Positions 56,545 to 64,000 of a stretch of DNA of 64,000 bases are shown here, one piece after another (the first letter of the stretch is position 1; each line of letters opens with the position of its first letter). The translations under genes and the position numbers were made by a program. Source of the stretch: Actinomycetota bacterium (lineage in GTDB: Bacteria; Actinomycetota; Actinomycetes; Mycobacteriales; SCTD01); the NCBI GenBank assembly GCA_046723735.1, contig JBKOVB010000045.1:2544-66543 (forward strand). Reading direction: 5' to 3'. A model generated the notes under the pieces. The model was not told the origin of the DNA. It did not search any database and was given only the letters and a program-made list of their open reading frames with translations.

Positions 56545-56617
56545 TGCGCCGCCAGGGACTCGAACCCCGAACCCGCGGATTAAGAGTCCGCTGCTCTGCC
56601 AGTTGAGCTAGCGGCGC
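56545..56617 (-). tRNA. tRNA-Lys (anticodon CTT)
   Basis: The reverse complement reads GCGCCGC TA GCTC AACTGGCA GAGC A GCGGA CTCTTAA TCCGC GGGTT CGGGG TTCGAGT CCCTG GCGGCGC A. This gives a full cloverleaf of 73 nt. CCA is not encoded. Confidence 0.9.
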
Positions 56618-57330: not shown

Positions 57331-59214
57331 TCAGCCGCTGACGACGGCCAGCACCGTCCCCGGCTCCACCTGCTGCCCCGACGAGACCAGCACGTCGGTG
57401 ACCGTGCCGTCGGACGCCGTACGGACCGCGTGCTCCATCTTCATCGCCTCGAGGACGACGAGCGTGTCGCCCGCCTTCACCTCGTCCCCGACGCCGACCT
57501 CGACGCGCGTGACCGTGCCCGGCATCGGCGCCACGAGCGAGCCGGCGGCGAGCGCCGAGCCGGGCAGCGGGAAGCGCGGGTCCTCCACGAGCGCCGAGTG
57601 CCCGAGGGTCGAGTCGATGTATGTCGTGCCGCCCAGCACTACGTCGTACCTGCGTCGCACTCCGGCCACGCTCATGTCCACGTACGACGGGGCCGCCCCC
57701 CACACGACCACGTCGAGCGGCACGTCGTCGACCGTGACGACCACGCCGTCGCGCCCGTGCGCGTAGGTGACCCGCGTCCCGTCGTATGACACCGACTGCG
57801 GCTGTGAGCGCACGTTGCGCCAGCCGCTCGGGAACACGCCGCGGCGCGCCTCGGCCGCGGCCAACGCCCCGGCGACGCAGTGGATCCGGTGCACCTCAGG
57901 ATCCAGAGAAGGCAGCGGGAACCGCTCGAGGAAGTGGGTGTCGACGTCGTCCGCGGCCCAGGCCTCGGAGCGCAGCACCGCCACGAGCAGGTCGCGGTTG
58001 GTCACTACGCCGTGGAGCCGCGCGCGCGACAGCGCATCCGCCAGCCGGGCGGTGGCCTGCTCGCGGGTGGCGCCGTGCGCGATCACCTTGGACAGCATCG
58101 CGTCGTAGTGCACGCCGACGACCGAGCCGGCCTCGACGCCGGCGTCGACGCGCACCTCGCCAGGCACGTCGAACGCGGTGAGGATGCCGGTCCGCGGCAG
58201 GTACGAGGCGTCCTCGGCGTAGAGCCGAGCCTCGATCGCGTGCCCGGCCAGCGCGGGCGACAGGGCCTCGGGAGGGAGGGTCTCGCCGCGGGCCACCGCG
58301 AGCTGCAGCGCCACCAGGTCGAGCCCGGTGACGAGCTCGGTGACCGGGTGCTCGACCTGCAGCCGGGTGTTCATCTCCAGGAAGAAGAACGCGCCCGTCG
58401 AGTCGAGCACGAACTCGACCGTGCCGGCGCCTTCGTAGGACACCGCGCGGGCGGCGGCCACGGCGGCCTCGGACAGGGCGGTCCGCAGCGCCGGGTCGAC
58501 GGCGGGGGAGGGCGCCTCCTCGATCACCTTCTGGTGGCGGCGTTGCACGGAGCAGTCGCGCTCGAACAGCGCCACGACGTTGCCGTGGCTGTCCCCGACG
58601 ACCTGCACCTCGACGTGGCGGGGGCGCTCGACGTACCGCTCGAGGAAGACGGTGCCGTCGCCGAAGGCCGACAGCGCCTCGCGTTGCGCGGCGGCGAACG
58701 CCGCGGCTAGGTCGTCGGCCGACCGGACGACGCGCATCCCGCGCCCGCCGCCGCCGGCGGAGGCCTTGACCAGCACCGGGAAGTCGGTGACCTGCGAGGG
58801 CTCGGTCCAGGTGGGCAGGCACGGCACGCCGGCGGCAGCCATGAGCTCCTTGGAGCGCAGCTTCGAGCCCATCGCCTCGATCGCGGCGGGCGGCGGCCCG
58901 ACCCAGGTGAGGCCCGCGTCGATCACGGCCTGGGCGAAGGCAGCGTTCTCCGACAGGAACCCGTACCCGGGGTGGATCGCGTCGGCCCCGGCAGCCTTGG
59001 CAGCGGCGATGACGAGGTCGGTCCGCAGGTAGGTCTCGGACGGCGCGTTGCCGGGCAGGTGCACGGCGGCGTCCGCCTCGCGGACGAACGGCATGTCCCG
59101 GTCGGCGTCGGAGAACACCGCGACGGTCCCGATGCCGAGCGAGCGGCAGGTGCGGAAGACCCGGCGGGCGATCTCCCCCCGGTTGGCGACGAGCAGGGTG
59201 CGCACGACCCTCAC
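57331..59214 (-). CDS. Acyl-CoA carboxylase alpha subunit (biotin carboxylase + BCCP)
   Basis: GTG 59214 overlaps the upstream stop (GTGA). Translation reads LLVANRGEIARRV, then ...HPGYGFLSEN, GGGGRGMR, EMNTRLQVEHPVTE, and the C-terminal biotinylation motif LEAMKMEH. Confidence 0.9.
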   Translation of the reverse strand: MRVVRTLLVANRGEIARRVFRTCRSLGIGTVAVFSDADRDMPFVREADAAVHLPGNAPSETYLRTDLVIAAAKAAGADAIHPGYGFLSENAAFAQAVIDAGLTWVGPPPAAIEAMGSKLRSKELMAAAGVPCLPTWTEPSQVTDFPVLVKASAGGGGRGMRVVRSADDLAAAFAAAQREALSAFGDGTVFLERYVERPRHVEVQVVGDSHGNVVALFERDCSVQRRHQKVIEEAPSPAVDPALRTALSEAAVAAARAVSYEGAGTVEFVLDSTGAFFFLEMNTRLQVEHPVTELVTGLDLVALQLAVARGETLPPEALSPALAGHAIEARLYAEDASYLPRTGILTAFDVPGEVRVDAGVEAGSVVGVHYDAMLSKVIAHGATREQATARLADALSRARLHGVVTNRDLLVAVLRSEAWAADDVDTHFLERFPLPSLDPEVHRIHCVAGALAAAEARRGVFPSGWRNVRSQPQSVSYDGTRVTYAHGRDGVVVTVDDVPLDVVVWGAAPSYVDMSVAGVRRRYDVVLGGTTYIDSTLGHSALVEDPRFPLPGSALAAGSLVAPMPGTVTRVEVGVGDEVKAGDTLVVLEAMKMEHAVRTASDGTVTDVLVSSGQQVEPGTVLAVVSG

Positions 59215-60794
59215 ATCCTGAAGACCCCGAAGCCGCCACGGGCTCCGGTGAAGGGGACACGGTTGACGACGCCCAGGCAGTAGCCGAGCACGGTGCGGGT
59301 GTCGCGCGGGTCGATGATGCCGTCGTCGTAGACCCGGCCGGAGTTGGCCAGCGCCAGCGACTCGGCCTCGATCTGGGCCTCGACGAGCTGGCGCATCGCG
59401 GCGTCCTGTTCCTCGTCGTACGGCAGGCCGCGGTCGAGCGCGGACTGGCGCCCGACGATCGACAGCACGCCGGCGAGCTGCGCCGGGCCCATCACCGCGG
59501 ACTTCGCGTTGGGCCAGCTGAAGAGGAACCGCGGGTCGTACGCGCGGCCGCACATGCCGTAGTTGCCGGCACCGTAGGAGGCGCCGATGACGACTGTGAG
59601 GTGCGGGACCGTGCTGTTGGAGACGGCGTTGATCATCTTCGCGCCGTCCTTGATGATGCCGGCCTGCTCATAGCGCTGCCCGACCATGTAGCCGGTCGTG
59701 TTCTGCAGGAACAGCAGGGGCGTGTCGGAGGAGTTGGCGAGCTGGATGAACTGCGCCGCCTTCTCCGACTCCTCGCTGAACAGCACGCCCTGCGCGTTGG
59801 CCAGGATGCCGACCGGCCACCCGTGGATCTTCGCCCACCCGGTCACGAGCGACGTTCCGTAGAGCGGCTTGAACTCGTCGAAGTCGCTGTCGTCGACGAT
59901 GCGGGCCAGCACCTCGCGCGGGTCGAAGGGCACCCGCAGGTCGACCGACGCGATGCCGAGCAGGTCCTCCTCGTCGTACCGCGGGGGCAGCGACGGCCGG
60001 TCGGCGGCGGGCGTCAGGTTGAGCCGCTTGACGATGTCACGCCCGATCCGGATGCAGTCGACCTCGTCCTCGGCGAGGTAGTCCGCGAGGCCGGACGTGC
60101 GGGCGTGCATCTCGGCGCCACCGAGCGACTCGTCGTCGCTCTCCTCGCCGGTCGCCATCTTCACCAGCGGCGGACCGCCAAGGAACACCTTGGCGCGCTC
60201 GCGGACCATCACGACCCAGTCGCTCATGCCGGGCACGTAGGCACCGCCCGCGGTCGAGTTTCCGAAGACCAGCGACACGGTCGGGATGCCCTGGGCCGAC
60301 AGGCGGGTGAGGTTGCGGAACATCGCGCCGCCGGGGATGAAGATCTCCGCCTGCGTCGGCAGGTCCGCACCACCCGACTCCACGAGGAACAGCAGCGGCA
60401 GCCGGTTGACGCGGGCGATCTCCATGGCACGGCCGGTCTTCTTGGCCGACCAGGGGTTGCTCGCGCCGCCGCGGACCGTCGGGTCGTTGGCCATGATCAT
60501 GCAGTCGACGCCGTGCACCCGGCCGATACCGGTGACGAGCGAGGCGCCGACAGGGAACGACGAGCCGTACGCCGCGACCGGCATCAGCTCGAGGAACGGC
60601 GCGTCCTGGTCGAGGAGCAGCTCGATGCGCTCGCGGGGGAGGAGCTTGCCGCGGGCGCGGTGCCGGGCGACGTACTTCTCGCCGCCTCCGCCCAGGGCCT
60701 TGTCCGTCTCGGCCTGCACCAGCGCGATCTGCTCGAGCATCGCCGTACGGCGGTCGGCGGACACCACGTCCGGACGTGAGGTGAGCGTCGTCAC
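59211..60794 (-). CDS. Acyl-CoA carboxylase carboxyltransferase (beta) subunit, methylcrotonyl-CoA-carboxylase-like
   Basis: The GTG 60794 start is internal to the track ORF. Motifs include GKLLPRERIELLLD, ANDPTVRGGA, VFGNSTAGGAYVP and LQNTTGYMVG. Confidence 0.9.
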   Translation of the reverse strand: MTTLTSRPDVVSADRRTAMLEQIALVQAETDKALGGGGEKYVARHRARGKLLPRERIELLLDQDAPFLELMPVAAYGSSFPVGASLVTGIGRVHGVDCMIMANDPTVRGGASNPWSAKKTGRAMEIARVNRLPLLFLVESGGADLPTQAEIFIPGGAMFRNLTRLSAQGIPTVSLVFGNSTAGGAYVPGMSDWVVMVRERAKVFLGGPPLVKMATGEESDDESLGGAEMHARTSGLADYLAEDEVDCIRIGRDIVKRLNLTPAADRPSLPPRYDEEDLLGIASVDLRVPFDPREVLARIVDDSDFDEFKPLYGTSLVTGWAKIHGWPVGILANAQGVLFSEESEKAAQFIQLANSSDTPLLFLQNTTGYMVGQRYEQAGIIKDGAKMINAVSNSTVPHLTVVIGASYGAGNYGMCGRAYDPRFLFSWPNAKSAVMGPAQLAGVLSIVGRQSALDRGLPYDEEQDAAMRQLVEAQIEAESLALANSGRVYDDGIIDPRDTRTVLGYCLGVVNRVPFTGARGGFGVFRM

Positions 60795-60831
60795 GGGCCC
60801 GACCCTACCGGGTGTGTGAACCACCGTTAGC

Positions 60832-61975
<1,144 letters not shown>

Positions 61976-61983
<8 letters not shown>

Positions 61984-62488
61984 CGTCCACGAGCACGAGC
62001 TGGCCCTGCGGGAGGGTCGCGTCGAGCGCGAGCCGGGTGCCCTGCCGCCGCACTACCCGTCCTGCTTCGGCTGCGGGCCCGACGCGGAGTACGGCCTGCA
62101 CGTCGTCAACCGCAAGGTCGGCGACGAGGTGCACGCGACCTACGTCTTCGGCGAGAAGCACCAGGGCGCGCCGGGCATCGCGCACGGCGGCACGGTGGCC
62201 GCCCTCGTCGACGACGTCTGCGGCGGGCTGCTGTTCGTCGTCAAGGAGCCGGCGGTCACGCGCTCCCTCAACGTCGAGTACCTCAGGCCGGTGCTCGTCG
62301 GCGTGACCTACCACGTGGTCGCGCGCATCGACCGGCGCGAGGGTCGCAAGCTGTTCGTGAGCTGCGAGGGTCGCGACGACTCAGGCGAGCTGGTGTTCCG
62401 GGGTGGCGGGCTGTTCATCGTCGTGGACCTCTCCCACTTCGACCAGGGCGCCGGCCCCGGCGAGGGGCAACCCCCGGTCGCGCTGTAG
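61976..62488 (+). CDS. PaaI/hotdog-fold thioesterase
   Basis: GTG 61976 overlaps the ACAD stop by 8 nt. Translation reads CFGCGPD...GAPGIAHGGTVAALVDDVCG...SLNVEYLRPV. Confidence 0.8.
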
Positions 62489-62935
62489 CCACGCCGTACC
62501 CGCGAAGACGGTCAACAGCTCGCAGGCCGTCGCCGCCAGGTCGGCCGGGCCCATGCGCTCTCGCGGGCCGAGGCCGAAGGGCACGCTCACCGCGCGCGTC
62601 CAGACCCAGAGCTCCACCACCGCGAGGTTGGCGCACACGCCGAGCAGGACGAGGCGCCGGCCCGGTGAGAGCAGCAGCGCACCGACCCAGACCAGCTGGG
62701 CCAGGCAGAGCAGCGTGAAGAACCAGCCCAGCACCGCGGCCTCCTCCGCGTGCGCGGGGACGACGAGGGCGTGGATCAGCGCGGATCCCACGGTCCCCGC
62801 CACGACGAGGTGCAGGCTCAGCGGCAGGGGGGCTCCCGCCGTACGCCGCCACTCGCGCAGGAACAACACGCAGAAGAACAGCAGCGGTACGACGAGCATC
62901 AGCAGGTGCGGCAAGTGACGGGTCGTAGTCACCAC
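62381..62935 (-). CDS. Hypothetical integral membrane protein
   Basis: GTG 62935. It has four to five hydrophobic helices. The last ~36 codons overlap the convergent thioesterase gene. Confidence 0.55.
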   Translation of the reverse strand: MVTTTRHLPHLLMLVVPLLFFCVLFLREWRRTAGAPLPLSLHLVVAGTVGSALIHALVVPAHAEEAAVLGWFFTLLCLAQLVWVGALLLSPGRRLVLLGVCANLAVVELWVWTRAVSVPFGLGPRERMGPADLAATACELLTVFAGTAWLQRDRGLPLAGAGALVEVGEVHDDEQPATPEHQLA

Positions 62936-63070
62936 CCCCCGGTTCCGTAGCTTCCGTCACCTTGCGTCGCAGGGTGATCGCACGGAATGACGACAACGGG
63001 CCATTCGCGCCCTGTGCGGAGAGCGGGATGCTGCCGGGTAGGAAGCATTCCCTTCCCCAGGGGGAACCTC

Positions 63071-63658
63071 ATGGTGTGGAAGCTGGGAGCGGCCGCGAAC
63101 TTCGTGACCATGATCGCGTACTTCGCGATCGTGGTCGCGATCCTTGTCCCGCTCATCCGGGAGAACCAGCTCAGGGCCAACCGCCTCGGCACCGCCACCG
63201 CGCTGATCTTCTTCACGTGCGCGGTCCACCACGGCGGTCACACGGTGCACATGCTGCTGCCTGCTCTCGGCATCTCCTCGGGCAGCGGGTTGGCGATGCG
63301 GCAGGCTTTCGACCTGCAGGCTGTGCTCTGGGACGTGTTCACCGCAGCCGTCGGCATCTACTACTGGACGCTGCGCAGGACGTACGGCGCGCTCATGAAC
63401 GGCGCCAAGCTCTTCGAGGACCTGCGCGAGCGGCAGCGCCAGGCGCTCGAGATCAACGACGGCATCGTGCAGGGCCTGGCGACGGCGAAGCTGGCCCTCG
63501 AGCTGGACCAGACCCACCTCACGCGGGAGGCGCTCGAGTCCACGCTGGCCTCCGCGCGGGGCCTGATCACCGACCTGTTGGGCGAGGTCTCCGACCAGTC
63601 TGCCTTCGAGCCGGGCGAGCTCCGGCGCTCGCGTGCCGCCCTGCTGAGGAAGGCATGA
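63071..63658 (+). CDS. Membrane protein (3 TM) with a HisKA_3-like DHp hairpin only: His replaced by Asn, no HATPase domain
   Basis: ATG 63071 follows GGGGGA. The TM helices are NFVTMIAYFAIVVAILVPL, ATALIFFTCAV and VLWDVFTAAVGIYYW. Then ERQRQALEINDGIVQGLATAKLALELD...REALESTLASARGLITDLLGEV aligns with DesK ERQRIARDLHDTLGQKLSLIGLKSDL...ELKSVQQTARTSLNEVRKIV. A stop follows 24 codons later. Confidence 0.65.
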   Translation: MVWKLGAAANFVTMIAYFAIVVAILVPLIRENQLRANRLGTATALIFFTCAVHHGGHTVHMLLPALGISSGSGLAMRQAFDLQAVLWDVFTAAVGIYYWTLRRTYGALMNGAKLFEDLRERQRQALEINDGIVQGLATAKLALELDQTHLTREALESTLASARGLITDLLGEVSDQSAFEPGELRRSRAALLRKA

Positions 63659-63668
63659 GCACCCCCGC

Positions 63669-64000
63669 ATGACCGCTCCCTTCGGGCTGGACCTCCGCTC
63701 CCGCACCTCCGGCGCCCCGGTGCGCGTGCTCGTCGTCGACGACACCCCGGCGCTGCGCCTGCTGACGCGGCTCATGCTGGAGGGCAGCGGGTTCGAAGTC
63801 GTGGGCGAGGCCGGTGACGGCCTCGCCGCCATCGCGGAGGCCGCCACCCTGCAGCCCGACCTCGTGCTGCTCGACCTCGCCATGCCGGTGATGGACGGCC
63901 TCGAGGCGCTGCCCCGGATTCGCGCAGCCGCCACCGGGGTGAGGGTCGTCATCGTGTCTGGCTTCGACCGCCGCGCGATGGAGTCCCAGGTCGTCGAGGC
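63669..64000 (+). CDS. Response regulator receiver domain (3' end beyond the window)
   Basis: ATG 63669. Translation reads VRVLVVDDTPALRLLTRLML...PDLVLLDLAMPVMDGLEALPRIR...VVIVSGF. The frame is open to the window edge, so it is absent from the ORF track. Confidence 0.85.
   Translation, partial: MTAPFGLDLRSRTSGAPVRVLVVDDTPALRLLTRLMLEGSGFEVVGEAGDGLAAIAEAATLQPDLVLLDLAMPVMDGLEALPRIRAAATGVRVVIVSGFDRRAMESQVVE

Follow-up and report, generated by a model that had tools for sequence, protein, structure and literature searches.

Two-component sensors are usually pictured as kinases that may double as phosphatases. In ethylene receptors, the Cu(I) cofactor of ETR1 is coordinated by Cys65 and His69. Accounts of bacterial proteins with ethylene-binding domains (PMC7700396) have so far dealt only with proteobacteria and cyanobacteria, where the outputs vary. 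For sensors of the HisKA_3 type, transmitter phosphatase activity is attributed to a Gln that positions the hydrolytic water and an Asp that contacts the regulator, and in NarX this activity is independent of the His (PMC5231405, citing Huynh et al. 2010). In DesK, Asp189 is bound to Arg84 of its regulator (PMC5231405). Here we analyse a gene whose product has features of both kinds of system. It lies near the end of a stretch of 64,000 nucleotides (the window) from contig JBKOVB010000045.1 of an Actinomycetota bacterium (assembly GCA_046723735.1), and its product is called here the sensor.

The sensor gene (63071..63658, + strand) encodes a protein of 195 amino acids in the window translation. 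As judged from sequence, Pfam, alignment and an AlphaFold2 (AF2) model, this protein is predicted to consist of a three-transmembrane (TM) domain resembling the Pfam family ETR1_N, followed by a HisKA_3-type hairpin that has neither the acceptor His nor an ATP-binding (CA) domain. An initial annotation of this DNA had described a 195-amino-acid product in which three TM helices precede a hairpin of the HisKA_3 type, and the translation, the AF2 model and the Pfam alignment agree with that description. The reading that we favour, and to which we give about an even chance, is that the sensor is a signal-gated phosphatase acting on the receiver (REC) domain encoded downstream.

The hairpin and its missing kinase features

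The hairpin of the dimerization and histidine phosphotransfer (DHp) type spans residues 117-173 (63419..63589, +), with helix 2 at residues 148-173, as delimited by Pfam, hhalign, the family alignment and AF2. Its first helix reads A-L-E-I-N129-D130-G-I-V-Q134-G-L, with N129 encoded at 63455-63457, D130 at 63458-63460 and Q134 at 63470-63472. Both the translation and the HisKA_3 alignment bear out the earlier observation that E-I-N-D-G-I-V-Q stands here in place of E-L-H-D-x-x-x-Q. Profiling the protein with HisKA_3 and HATPase_c models, as the initial annotation had proposed, gave a sub-threshold match to the first and none to the second: HisKA_3 (PF07730) aligns residues 120-173 to profile positions 1-56 with E = 0.02 and 15.9 bits (gathering score 24), and HATPase_c has no Pfam match in the sensor at E <= 1. 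NCBIfam returned weak matches only, to the HisKA_3 kinases MacS and MctS.

Other members of the family point the same way. Thirteen of the 23 aligned members match HisKA_3 at E < 0.1, the best of them at 0.0017, and HisKA_3 is the sole DHp family to be hit. A profile of the C-terminal half aligned by hhalign to a HisKA_3 DHp profile with E = 9.2e-5, and with N/H, D/D and Q/Q in register; the reference profile was made from seven domains, six of them validated at 55-83 bits and one taken from a Chloroflexota locus discussed below (L022). Short relatives that bear the His and read A-L-E-I-H-D-N-V-V-Q-G-L match HisKA_3 in 10 of 10 cases, and with 24.2 bits one of them (P0131) reaches the gathering score. 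Sequence profile searches of the PDB with the full-length and the C-terminal alignments retrieved designed helical repeats and a TetR protein only, and no histidine kinase. HisKA_3 homology rests on profile evidence, because neither these searches nor Foldseek retrieved kinases, and we regard the support for a HisKA_3 origin of the hairpin as moderate.

By its sequence the sensor is incapable of autophosphorylation, because the acceptor His and the ATP-binding domain are both absent. This part of the initial annotation stands: the lack of a CA domain is family-wide, and a frameshift is excluded (see below). The acceptor position is variable in the broader family. An alignment of 82 short sequences, namely the window protein and 81 short cluster representatives out of the top 150, has there 46 Asn, 22 His, 4 Gln, 4 Arg and 2 Ser; D130 is retained by 70 of these sequences and Q134 by 69. 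About a quarter of the short relatives (22/82) retain the His, yet these too are without a CA domain, and no chain combining the hairpin with HATPase_c was found among the relatives inspected. In the 23 aligned homologues (59-83% identity), N129, D130, V133, Q134, G135 and L136 are invariant. When one genome per species was scanned, 80 genome loci were obtained, at which the acceptor residue is Asn in 79 and His in 1. On these alignments the Asn is a clade-specific trait and D-x-x-x-Q is the constant feature. The notion that orthologues share both the Asn and the missing CA domain is thus borne out for the CA domain throughout the short family and for the Asn at the genome loci, but not for the Asn in the wider family.

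The only genome locus with a His, in a metagenome-assembled genome (MAG) of the Acidimicrobiales (L018:7001-8004, +), reads A-L-Q-I-H-D-E-V-V-Q-G-L and has a stand-alone receiver of 139 amino acids as its partner; no CA-domain gene was found near this locus. We also considered that the kinase might be split, with its CA domain in a protein of its own, and rejected this, as no gene for such a protein is linked, even at a His-bearing locus. In one relative of 426 amino acids (P0164), the unit of sensor and hairpin is duplicated in tandem within one chain, copy 1 reading L-E-V-H-D-G-I-V-Q, with the His, and copy 2 reading M-Q-D-T-T-V-Q.

A DHp-only protein that does not bind ATP resembles the histidine phosphotransferases, and His-bearing relatives exist, so that a Spo0B/ChpT-like phosphotransfer intermediate between receivers has to be considered. 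We judge such a role very improbable. The Asn that occupies the acceptor position, here and at 79 of the 80 loci, excludes it by sequence for the Asn clade, and the hairpin contains no other conserved His.

Family spread and selection

At E <= 1e-3 the sensor has 1,139 homologues, and the best 120 of these 1,139 are 182-214 amino acids long. When 1.84 billion cluster representatives were searched exhaustively with a profile, 1,306 relatives were recovered. The genome loci are found in MAGs of the Mycobacteriales and Frankiales (76-86% identity), in Nocardioides and Marmoricola (including cultured species), in Acidimicrobiia, and in Chloroflexota and Dormibacterota. Cultured carriers are Nocardioides psychrotolerans, N. 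szechwanensis, N. kribbensis and Marmoricola sp. RAF53.

Compared with seven orthologues, the sensor gene has dN/dS values of 0.17-0.34. The gene is under purifying selection, and a pseudogene is rejected because of these values. Its truncated appearance is the only feature that would suit a decaying kinase remnant, or a CA domain concealed by a frameshift or a faulty assembly. The data refute this explanation, whose probability we consider negligible: in addition to the selection values, the uniform length of the best 120 homologues extends over several phyla, and the next open reading frame (ORF) is a receiver in every locus. It is this family-wide length, together with the receiver as next ORF, that rules out a frameshift concealing a CA domain.

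The downstream receiver

The 5' part of the partner gene (63669..64000, +), which is cut by the window end, encodes a receiver with D24, D25, D69 and S97, identified by Response_reg (74.5 bits) and by orthology. The DD...D pocket that the initial annotation had noted in the next gene is present. The ATG at 63669 lies 10 nt past the sensor stop, and not 11 nt as had been counted. At the orthologous locus L001 (84% identity, on a 244-kb contig), the sensor gene is followed by a gene for a REC-HisKA-HATPase_c protein of 384 amino acids, which overlaps the sensor stop by 4 nt, and then by a gene for a REC-GGDEF-EAL protein of 550 amino acids. The 110 receiver residues of the window align to the N-terminus of the 384-residue kinase, and by orthology the window partner is predicted to be a soluble REC-HisKA-HATPase_c kinase of about 384 amino acids.

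A REC-first gene follows the sensor gene in all of the 80 loci having downstream DNA, and in 61 of the 80 its start overlaps the sensor stop by 4 nt. The output is a HisKA/HATPase_c core in 66 of the 80 partners and GGDEF(-EAL) in 4; the remaining 10 comprise stand-alone REC, REC-PAS, REC-REC and incomplete proteins. A classical response regulator as partner is rejected by orthology, since the receiver is attached to a kinase both in L001 and in those 66 loci. The earlier proposal that the neighbour is the cognate target holds as far as the receiver is concerned, which is constant at every locus; the target would be, by orthology, the N-terminal receiver of a kinase and not a classical response regulator.

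The DD pair, the acceptor Asp, the Ser and the Lys of the receiver are kept in at least 90% of the 80 partners, and the receiver is therefore predicted to be phosphorylatable. Its closest resemblance is to receivers of the NarL/FixJ and CheB kinds, and HisKA_3 kinases usually have NarL- or CheB-type partners. In rare natural fusions of 333-345 amino acids (P0158, P0207, P0213, P0279), the sensor, the hairpin and the receiver form one chain. Their His position is taken by V, L or A, and D-x-x-x-Q-G-L is preserved. The adjacent receiver domain is strongly supported as the functional partner of the sensor by the synteny at all 80 loci, the gene overlap, the natural fusions, the intact active site and the covariation described below.

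The kinase core in 66 of the 80 partners would also suit an accessory subunit of another kinase (RocA-type or split kinase). In such an arrangement the hairpin would heterodimerise with, or dock on, the DHp/CA region of the downstream REC-HisKA-HATPase_c protein or of an unlinked HisKA_3 kinase, and would lend it membrane sensing. In one Chloroflexota MAG (L022:1058-2227, +), a GAF-HisKA_3-HATPase_c kinase is encoded immediately upstream of the sensor gene; this is the only linked HisKA_3 kinase in 81 loci, and it could be the phosphodonor in that organism. The relatives that keep the His, about a quarter of the short ones, could be phosphorylated in trans. We nevertheless hold this explanation to be improbable. 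The constant feature of the partners is the receiver only, as they include REC-only, REC-PAS and REC-PAS-GGDEF-EAL proteins, and the natural fusions are to a bare receiver. Moreover, the DHp domain of the partner kinase is of the HisKA and not the HisKA_3 type, and the window protein has no His that could accept a phosphate.

In a set of 77 sensor-receiver pairs, the highest mutual information (with average product correction, APC) among 3,075 column pairs was that between sensor residue 138 (Asn+9) and receiver position DD+3. The residues found at these two positions are V-D in 60 pairs, T-A/T/S in 6, E-G in 4, L-E in 2 and Q-R in 1. We take DD+3 to be DesR Leu13, in a numbering that is our own and absent from the published description. 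The top covarying pair is suggestive of the canonical DHp-REC interface, in which DesK Ser196 (His+8) and Leu200 (His+12) contact a DesR pocket made of Leu13, Ala16, Leu17 and Leu20 (PMC5231405).

The synteny, overlap, fusions and covariation apply equally to the main rival explanation, that of a non-catalytic pseudo-kinase adaptor similar to DivL, which we consider possible, if tentatively so. According to this explanation, the hairpin would bind the receiver, in a manner dependent on phosphorylation or not, and would tether or allosterically regulate the attached kinase or cyclase. The absence of a linked phosphodonor for REC-only and REC-GGDEF partners would be in line with it, and DivL provides a precedent of a His-less DHp domain that reads the state of a receiver (PMC4211667). 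However, binding alone would not account for a catalytic Asp and Gln that hardly change beside variable His and specificity positions, and the receiver retains a complete phospho-acceptor site. The evolutionary pattern would suit retained catalysis better than simple binding: the His position can be N, H, Q, R, S, V, L or A, whereas the Asp and Gln stay the same.

The membrane sensor module

The sensor module comprises residues 1-120 (63071..63430, +), which include TM1 (about residues 2-30), TM2 (38-66), a loop helix (70-79), TM3 (82-100) and a juxtamembrane motif, as assigned from Pfam ETR1_N and AF2. Pfam ETR1_N (PF25487) matches residues 5-69 with E = 1.1e-4 and 22.8 bits, under the gathering score of 27; apart from HisKA_3, it is the only Pfam family that the sensor matches. 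All 23 aligned family members match this profile below threshold (best E = 3.9e-6). Of 150 cluster representatives, 85 reach E <= 0.01 with it (best 7.5e-8), no rival membrane family being matched, and one relative (P0235) is above the gathering score with 28.2 bits. An hhalign comparison of the family with a single ETR1 sequence gave a weak match (E = 0.034) in the same register. The Arabidopsis ETR1 sequence used here was validated at 116 bits against ETR1_N, with residues 17-115 on profile positions 2-97.

Through the ETR1_N profile, sensor residue n corresponds to ETR1 residue n+15, so that N10 = D25, Y17 = Y32, I20 = I35, V21 = P36, F47 = I62, C50 = C65 and H54 = H69. The key codons on the + strand are N10 (63098-63100), Y17 (63119-63121), C50 (63218-63220), H53/H54 (63227-63232), H57 (63239-63241) and H60 (63248-63250). 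The equivalents of the two Cu ligands, C50 and H54, are in register; among the short sequences the Cys is present in 63/82 and the His in 73/82, and both are present in 80/80 genome loci. C50, H54, H57 and H60 are nearly invariant in the family and form a ladder along one face of TM2. An HHGGH cluster had been reported by the initial annotation, which placed it in a cytoplasm-proximal helix. The cluster is real (residues 53-57), but it sits in TM2 just behind Cys50, as part of the ETR1_N-like Cys/His motif.

Work by Wang et al. in 2006 reportedly placed Y32, I35, P36 and I62 among the ETR1 residues needed for ethylene binding. The sensor family conserves Y17 and I20, has V, A or S in place of P36, and carries an invariant Phe in place of I62. 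The residues required for ethylene binding in ETR1 are seven in number (PMC11819568). The equivalent of ETR1 Asp25 is Asn10 in the sensor and Asn in 78 of the 80 loci. Among ethylene-binding domains Asp25 is 93.6% conserved, with Asn as a natural variant in 3.7% (PMC10266040), and the D25N receptor still functions with strongly reduced ethylene affinity (PMC10266040, PMC11971883). Taken on this alignment, the TM domain is probably similar to an ethylene-binding domain and probably binds copper. Candidate ligands are a small molecule that binds Cu(I), such as ethylene or another alkene, or else copper or the redox state itself.

A juxtamembrane motif, Y-G-x-L-M-x-G-A-x-L-F-E-D-L, is conserved together with the sensor module. 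The same module and motif are elsewhere fused to HisKA-HATPase_c(-REC-Hpt), PAS-GGDEF-EAL, SpoIIE and HD outputs. As it is found with several different outputs, the sensor module can be described, from these architectures, as a modular input domain, with the hairpin as one among its output options.

Gene structure and neighbourhood

We place the start of the sensor gene at ATG 63071, because its homologues begin with M-x-W at a length of about 195 amino acids and because GGGGGAA, which resembles a ribosome-binding site, is found at 63060-63066, 4 nt before this ATG. An alternative start at ATG 62987 (223 amino acids) was rejected, since the homologues all begin M-x-W at about 195 residues. The divergent intergenic region that contains the GGGGGAA, as read from the sequence, is 135 nt long (62936..63070). 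A consensus scan found no sigma-70-like promoter or intrinsic terminator near the gene, a scan that is uninformative for an actinobacterium of high GC content, and an Rfam scan gave no match near the sensor gene. The sole Rfam match in the window is a single tRNA gene at 56545-56617 (-).

The AF2 model of the sensor, built on the 23-sequence alignment (mean pLDDT 73), has helices at residues 2-30, 38-66, 70-79, 82-100, 102-144 and 148-173. These are three TM helices, one short loop helix and a helical hairpin into which TM3 runs; helix 102-144 is continuous with TM3 and, in the model and the sequence, carries the N129-D130-Q134 motif. The predicted topology has the N-terminus outside and the hairpin inside the cell, because the positive charges are on loop 28-38 and immediately behind TM3. 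Residues 174-195 (63590..63655, +) form a C-terminal tail, delimited by alignment and by a pLDDT < 50, which is disordered in the model and has a conserved G-P-G-(D/E)-L-R-R motif (G182, R186). This tail may be what is left of a DHp-CA linker, or it may serve as a short docking motif. The initial annotation was right that HATPase_c is missing, as there is no Pfam match; the ORF does not end right after helix 2, as it had also stated, since the tail of 22 residues follows.

Between the two genes, the sequence reads as a mini-ORF of five codons, M-S-T-P-A-stop (63655..63672, +), whose ATG overlaps the sensor stop and whose stop overlaps the receiver ATG. In the relatives L001-L008, the receiver gene begins at a conserved GAGGAAG-N2-RTGA junction. 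Since this junction is where those relatives start, the two successive ATGA overlaps in the window are read as a change of frame within the partner's opening codons, followed by a restart at ATG 63669.

On the other side of the sensor gene, and divergent from it in the window, is a gene for a membrane protein of 184 amino acids that belongs to no known family (62381..62935, -; tblastn, AF2, alignment). By tblastn, this protein adjoins the sensor gene in about 57 of the 80 loci. Its gene is divergent in the clade of the window (L001-L009) and co-directional in Nocardioides, Marmoricola and other loci, where in most cases its stop lies -4 to +50 nt from the sensor start. Residues H55, H62, Q80, W110, R114, G129 and D132 are invariant. 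The protein is without a Pfam or NCBIfam match; its AF2 model has five helices (pLDDT 75), and a Foldseek search against the PDB gave nothing significant. In L001, the JGI gene caller missed it. From its conservation and linkage, the 184-residue protein appears as a second conserved membrane component of the signalling unit, and it could be a cofactor-loading or co-sensing partner.

Further upstream (59211-62488) are genes for an acyl-CoA carboxylase carboxyltransferase, an acyl-CoA dehydrogenase and a 4HBT thioesterase. These three genes are syntenic with L001-L008 and not with more distant loci; because of this restricted synteny, they are probably unrelated to the signalling unit.

Discussion

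If the sensor is indeed a signal-gated phosphatase, one may picture its action as follows. The hairpin dimer would dock on the phosphorylated receiver like a HisKA_3 kinase in its phosphatase state. Gln134 would position the attacking water, and Asp130 would help to open the active site of the receiver. Ligand binding in the membrane domain would rotate the helix and so turn the phosphatase on or off. The phosphorylation state of the receiver, set in this way, would control the activity of the attached kinase and, probably, the turnover of cyclic di-GMP (c-di-GMP). The phosphate on the receiver could come from the partner's own kinase core or from a small-molecule donor.

Several points weigh against this model. 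The phosphatase role is argued from motif conservation and analogy, and the invariant Asn could point to a role beyond standard phosphatase chemistry. No kinase is linked at loci with REC-only or REC-GGDEF partners. The covariation is largely structured by clade, with V-D in 60 of the 77 pairs, and phylogeny may inflate its signal. As to homology, the Pfam scores of the sensor itself are sub-threshold (HisKA_3 15.9 vs 24; ETR1_N 22.8 vs 27), the hhalign match to the HisKA_3 profile has a probability of just 59%, over 30 columns, the PDB profile searches did not retrieve DesK, NarQ or similar proteins, and Foldseek with the sensor gave nothing. Finally, the full partner gene extends beyond the window, and its architecture is drawn from orthologues at 76-86% identity.

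A more far-reaching speculation would unite all of these elements. The sensor would then be a receptor with a copper cofactor for a small unsaturated or gaseous ligand (ethylene or another alkene), widespread in soil Actinomycetota, Chloroflexota and Dormibacterota. It would act as a phosphatase-only two-component sensor which, with a previously unrecognised His-bearing membrane partner, controls the REC-kinase and c-di-GMP turnover. We regard this complete picture as doubtful.

With more than 1,000 non-redundant members in several phyla, the family has lost the ATP-binding domain, and in a large clade also the His, while the residues of the phosphatase motif are kept. It would offer a natural minimal system for studying the control of transmitter phosphatase activity in isolation. 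It would also tie an ethylene-receptor-like copper domain to soil actinobacteria, with an output that appears to be c-di-GMP signalling. Since there are cultured carriers, these predictions are directly testable.

Comparison with known systems

No account of a CA-less HisKA_3 protein joined to an ethylene-binding-like domain turned up in literature searches, and the closest known systems each share a part of its features. CheZ, the dedicated phosphatase of CheY~P, acts on a phosphorylated receiver, as the sensor is proposed to do, through a helical bundle with a catalytic Asp and Gln four residues apart on a helix (compare PMC5231405). Unlike the sensor, CheZ is soluble and has no fused sensor domain; no CheZ Pfam match and no sequence homology were detected in the sensor. 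DivL of Caulobacter and RocA of Streptococcus are, as the sensor appears to be, derived from kinases, His-less and repurposed to interact with a signalling partner. DivL, however, keeps its CA domain, is of the HisKA type, and has neither a sensor that resembles the ethylene-binding domain nor the conserved D-x-x-x-Q.

With the HisKA_3 kinases (DesK, NarX/NarQ, LiaS/VraS) the sensor shares, in register, the helix-1 motif E-R-x-R-x-A-x-E-(L/I)-[H]-D-x-x-x-Q-x-L, including the Asp and Gln of the phosphatase motif. Its TM3 passes straight into the DHp helix, as in DesK, and, as in HisKA_3 systems, a NarL/CheB-like receiver is encoded just downstream with overlapping start and stop. It differs in belonging to a short family without HATPase_c, with Asn in place of His in this clade, and in having a partner receiver that usually heads a HisKA-type kinase instead of a DNA-binding domain. 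Judged by these residues and domains, the sensor lacks two hallmarks of a histidine kinase, namely the acceptor His and the CA domain, and it would correspond to the phosphatase half of a HisKA_3 sensor.

Compared with the ethylene receptors, the sensor has as its output a CA-less hairpin, in contrast to GAF/PAS domains and a HisKA kinase. It further departs from ETR1 in its sub-threshold Pfam scores, in the change of Asp25 to Asn, in not conserving Pro36 and Ile62, and in the additional H53, H57 and H60. Its phyla (Actinomycetota, Chloroflexota and Dormibacterota) lie outside those discussed for bacterial ethylene-binding domains (PMC7700396). On the other hand, an N-terminal three-TM domain, predicted with its N-terminus outside and C-terminus inside, is shared with Arabidopsis ETR1, Synechocystis SynEtr1 and Azospirillum AzoEtr1, and the Cys and His one turn apart on TM2 (C50/H54 for C65/H69) and the Tyr and Ile of TM1 (for Y32 and I35) with ETR1. 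The likeness extends to gene order, as the receiver gene of AzoEtr1 overlaps the receptor stop codon (PMC11819568), in the same manner as the partner genes of the sensor family.

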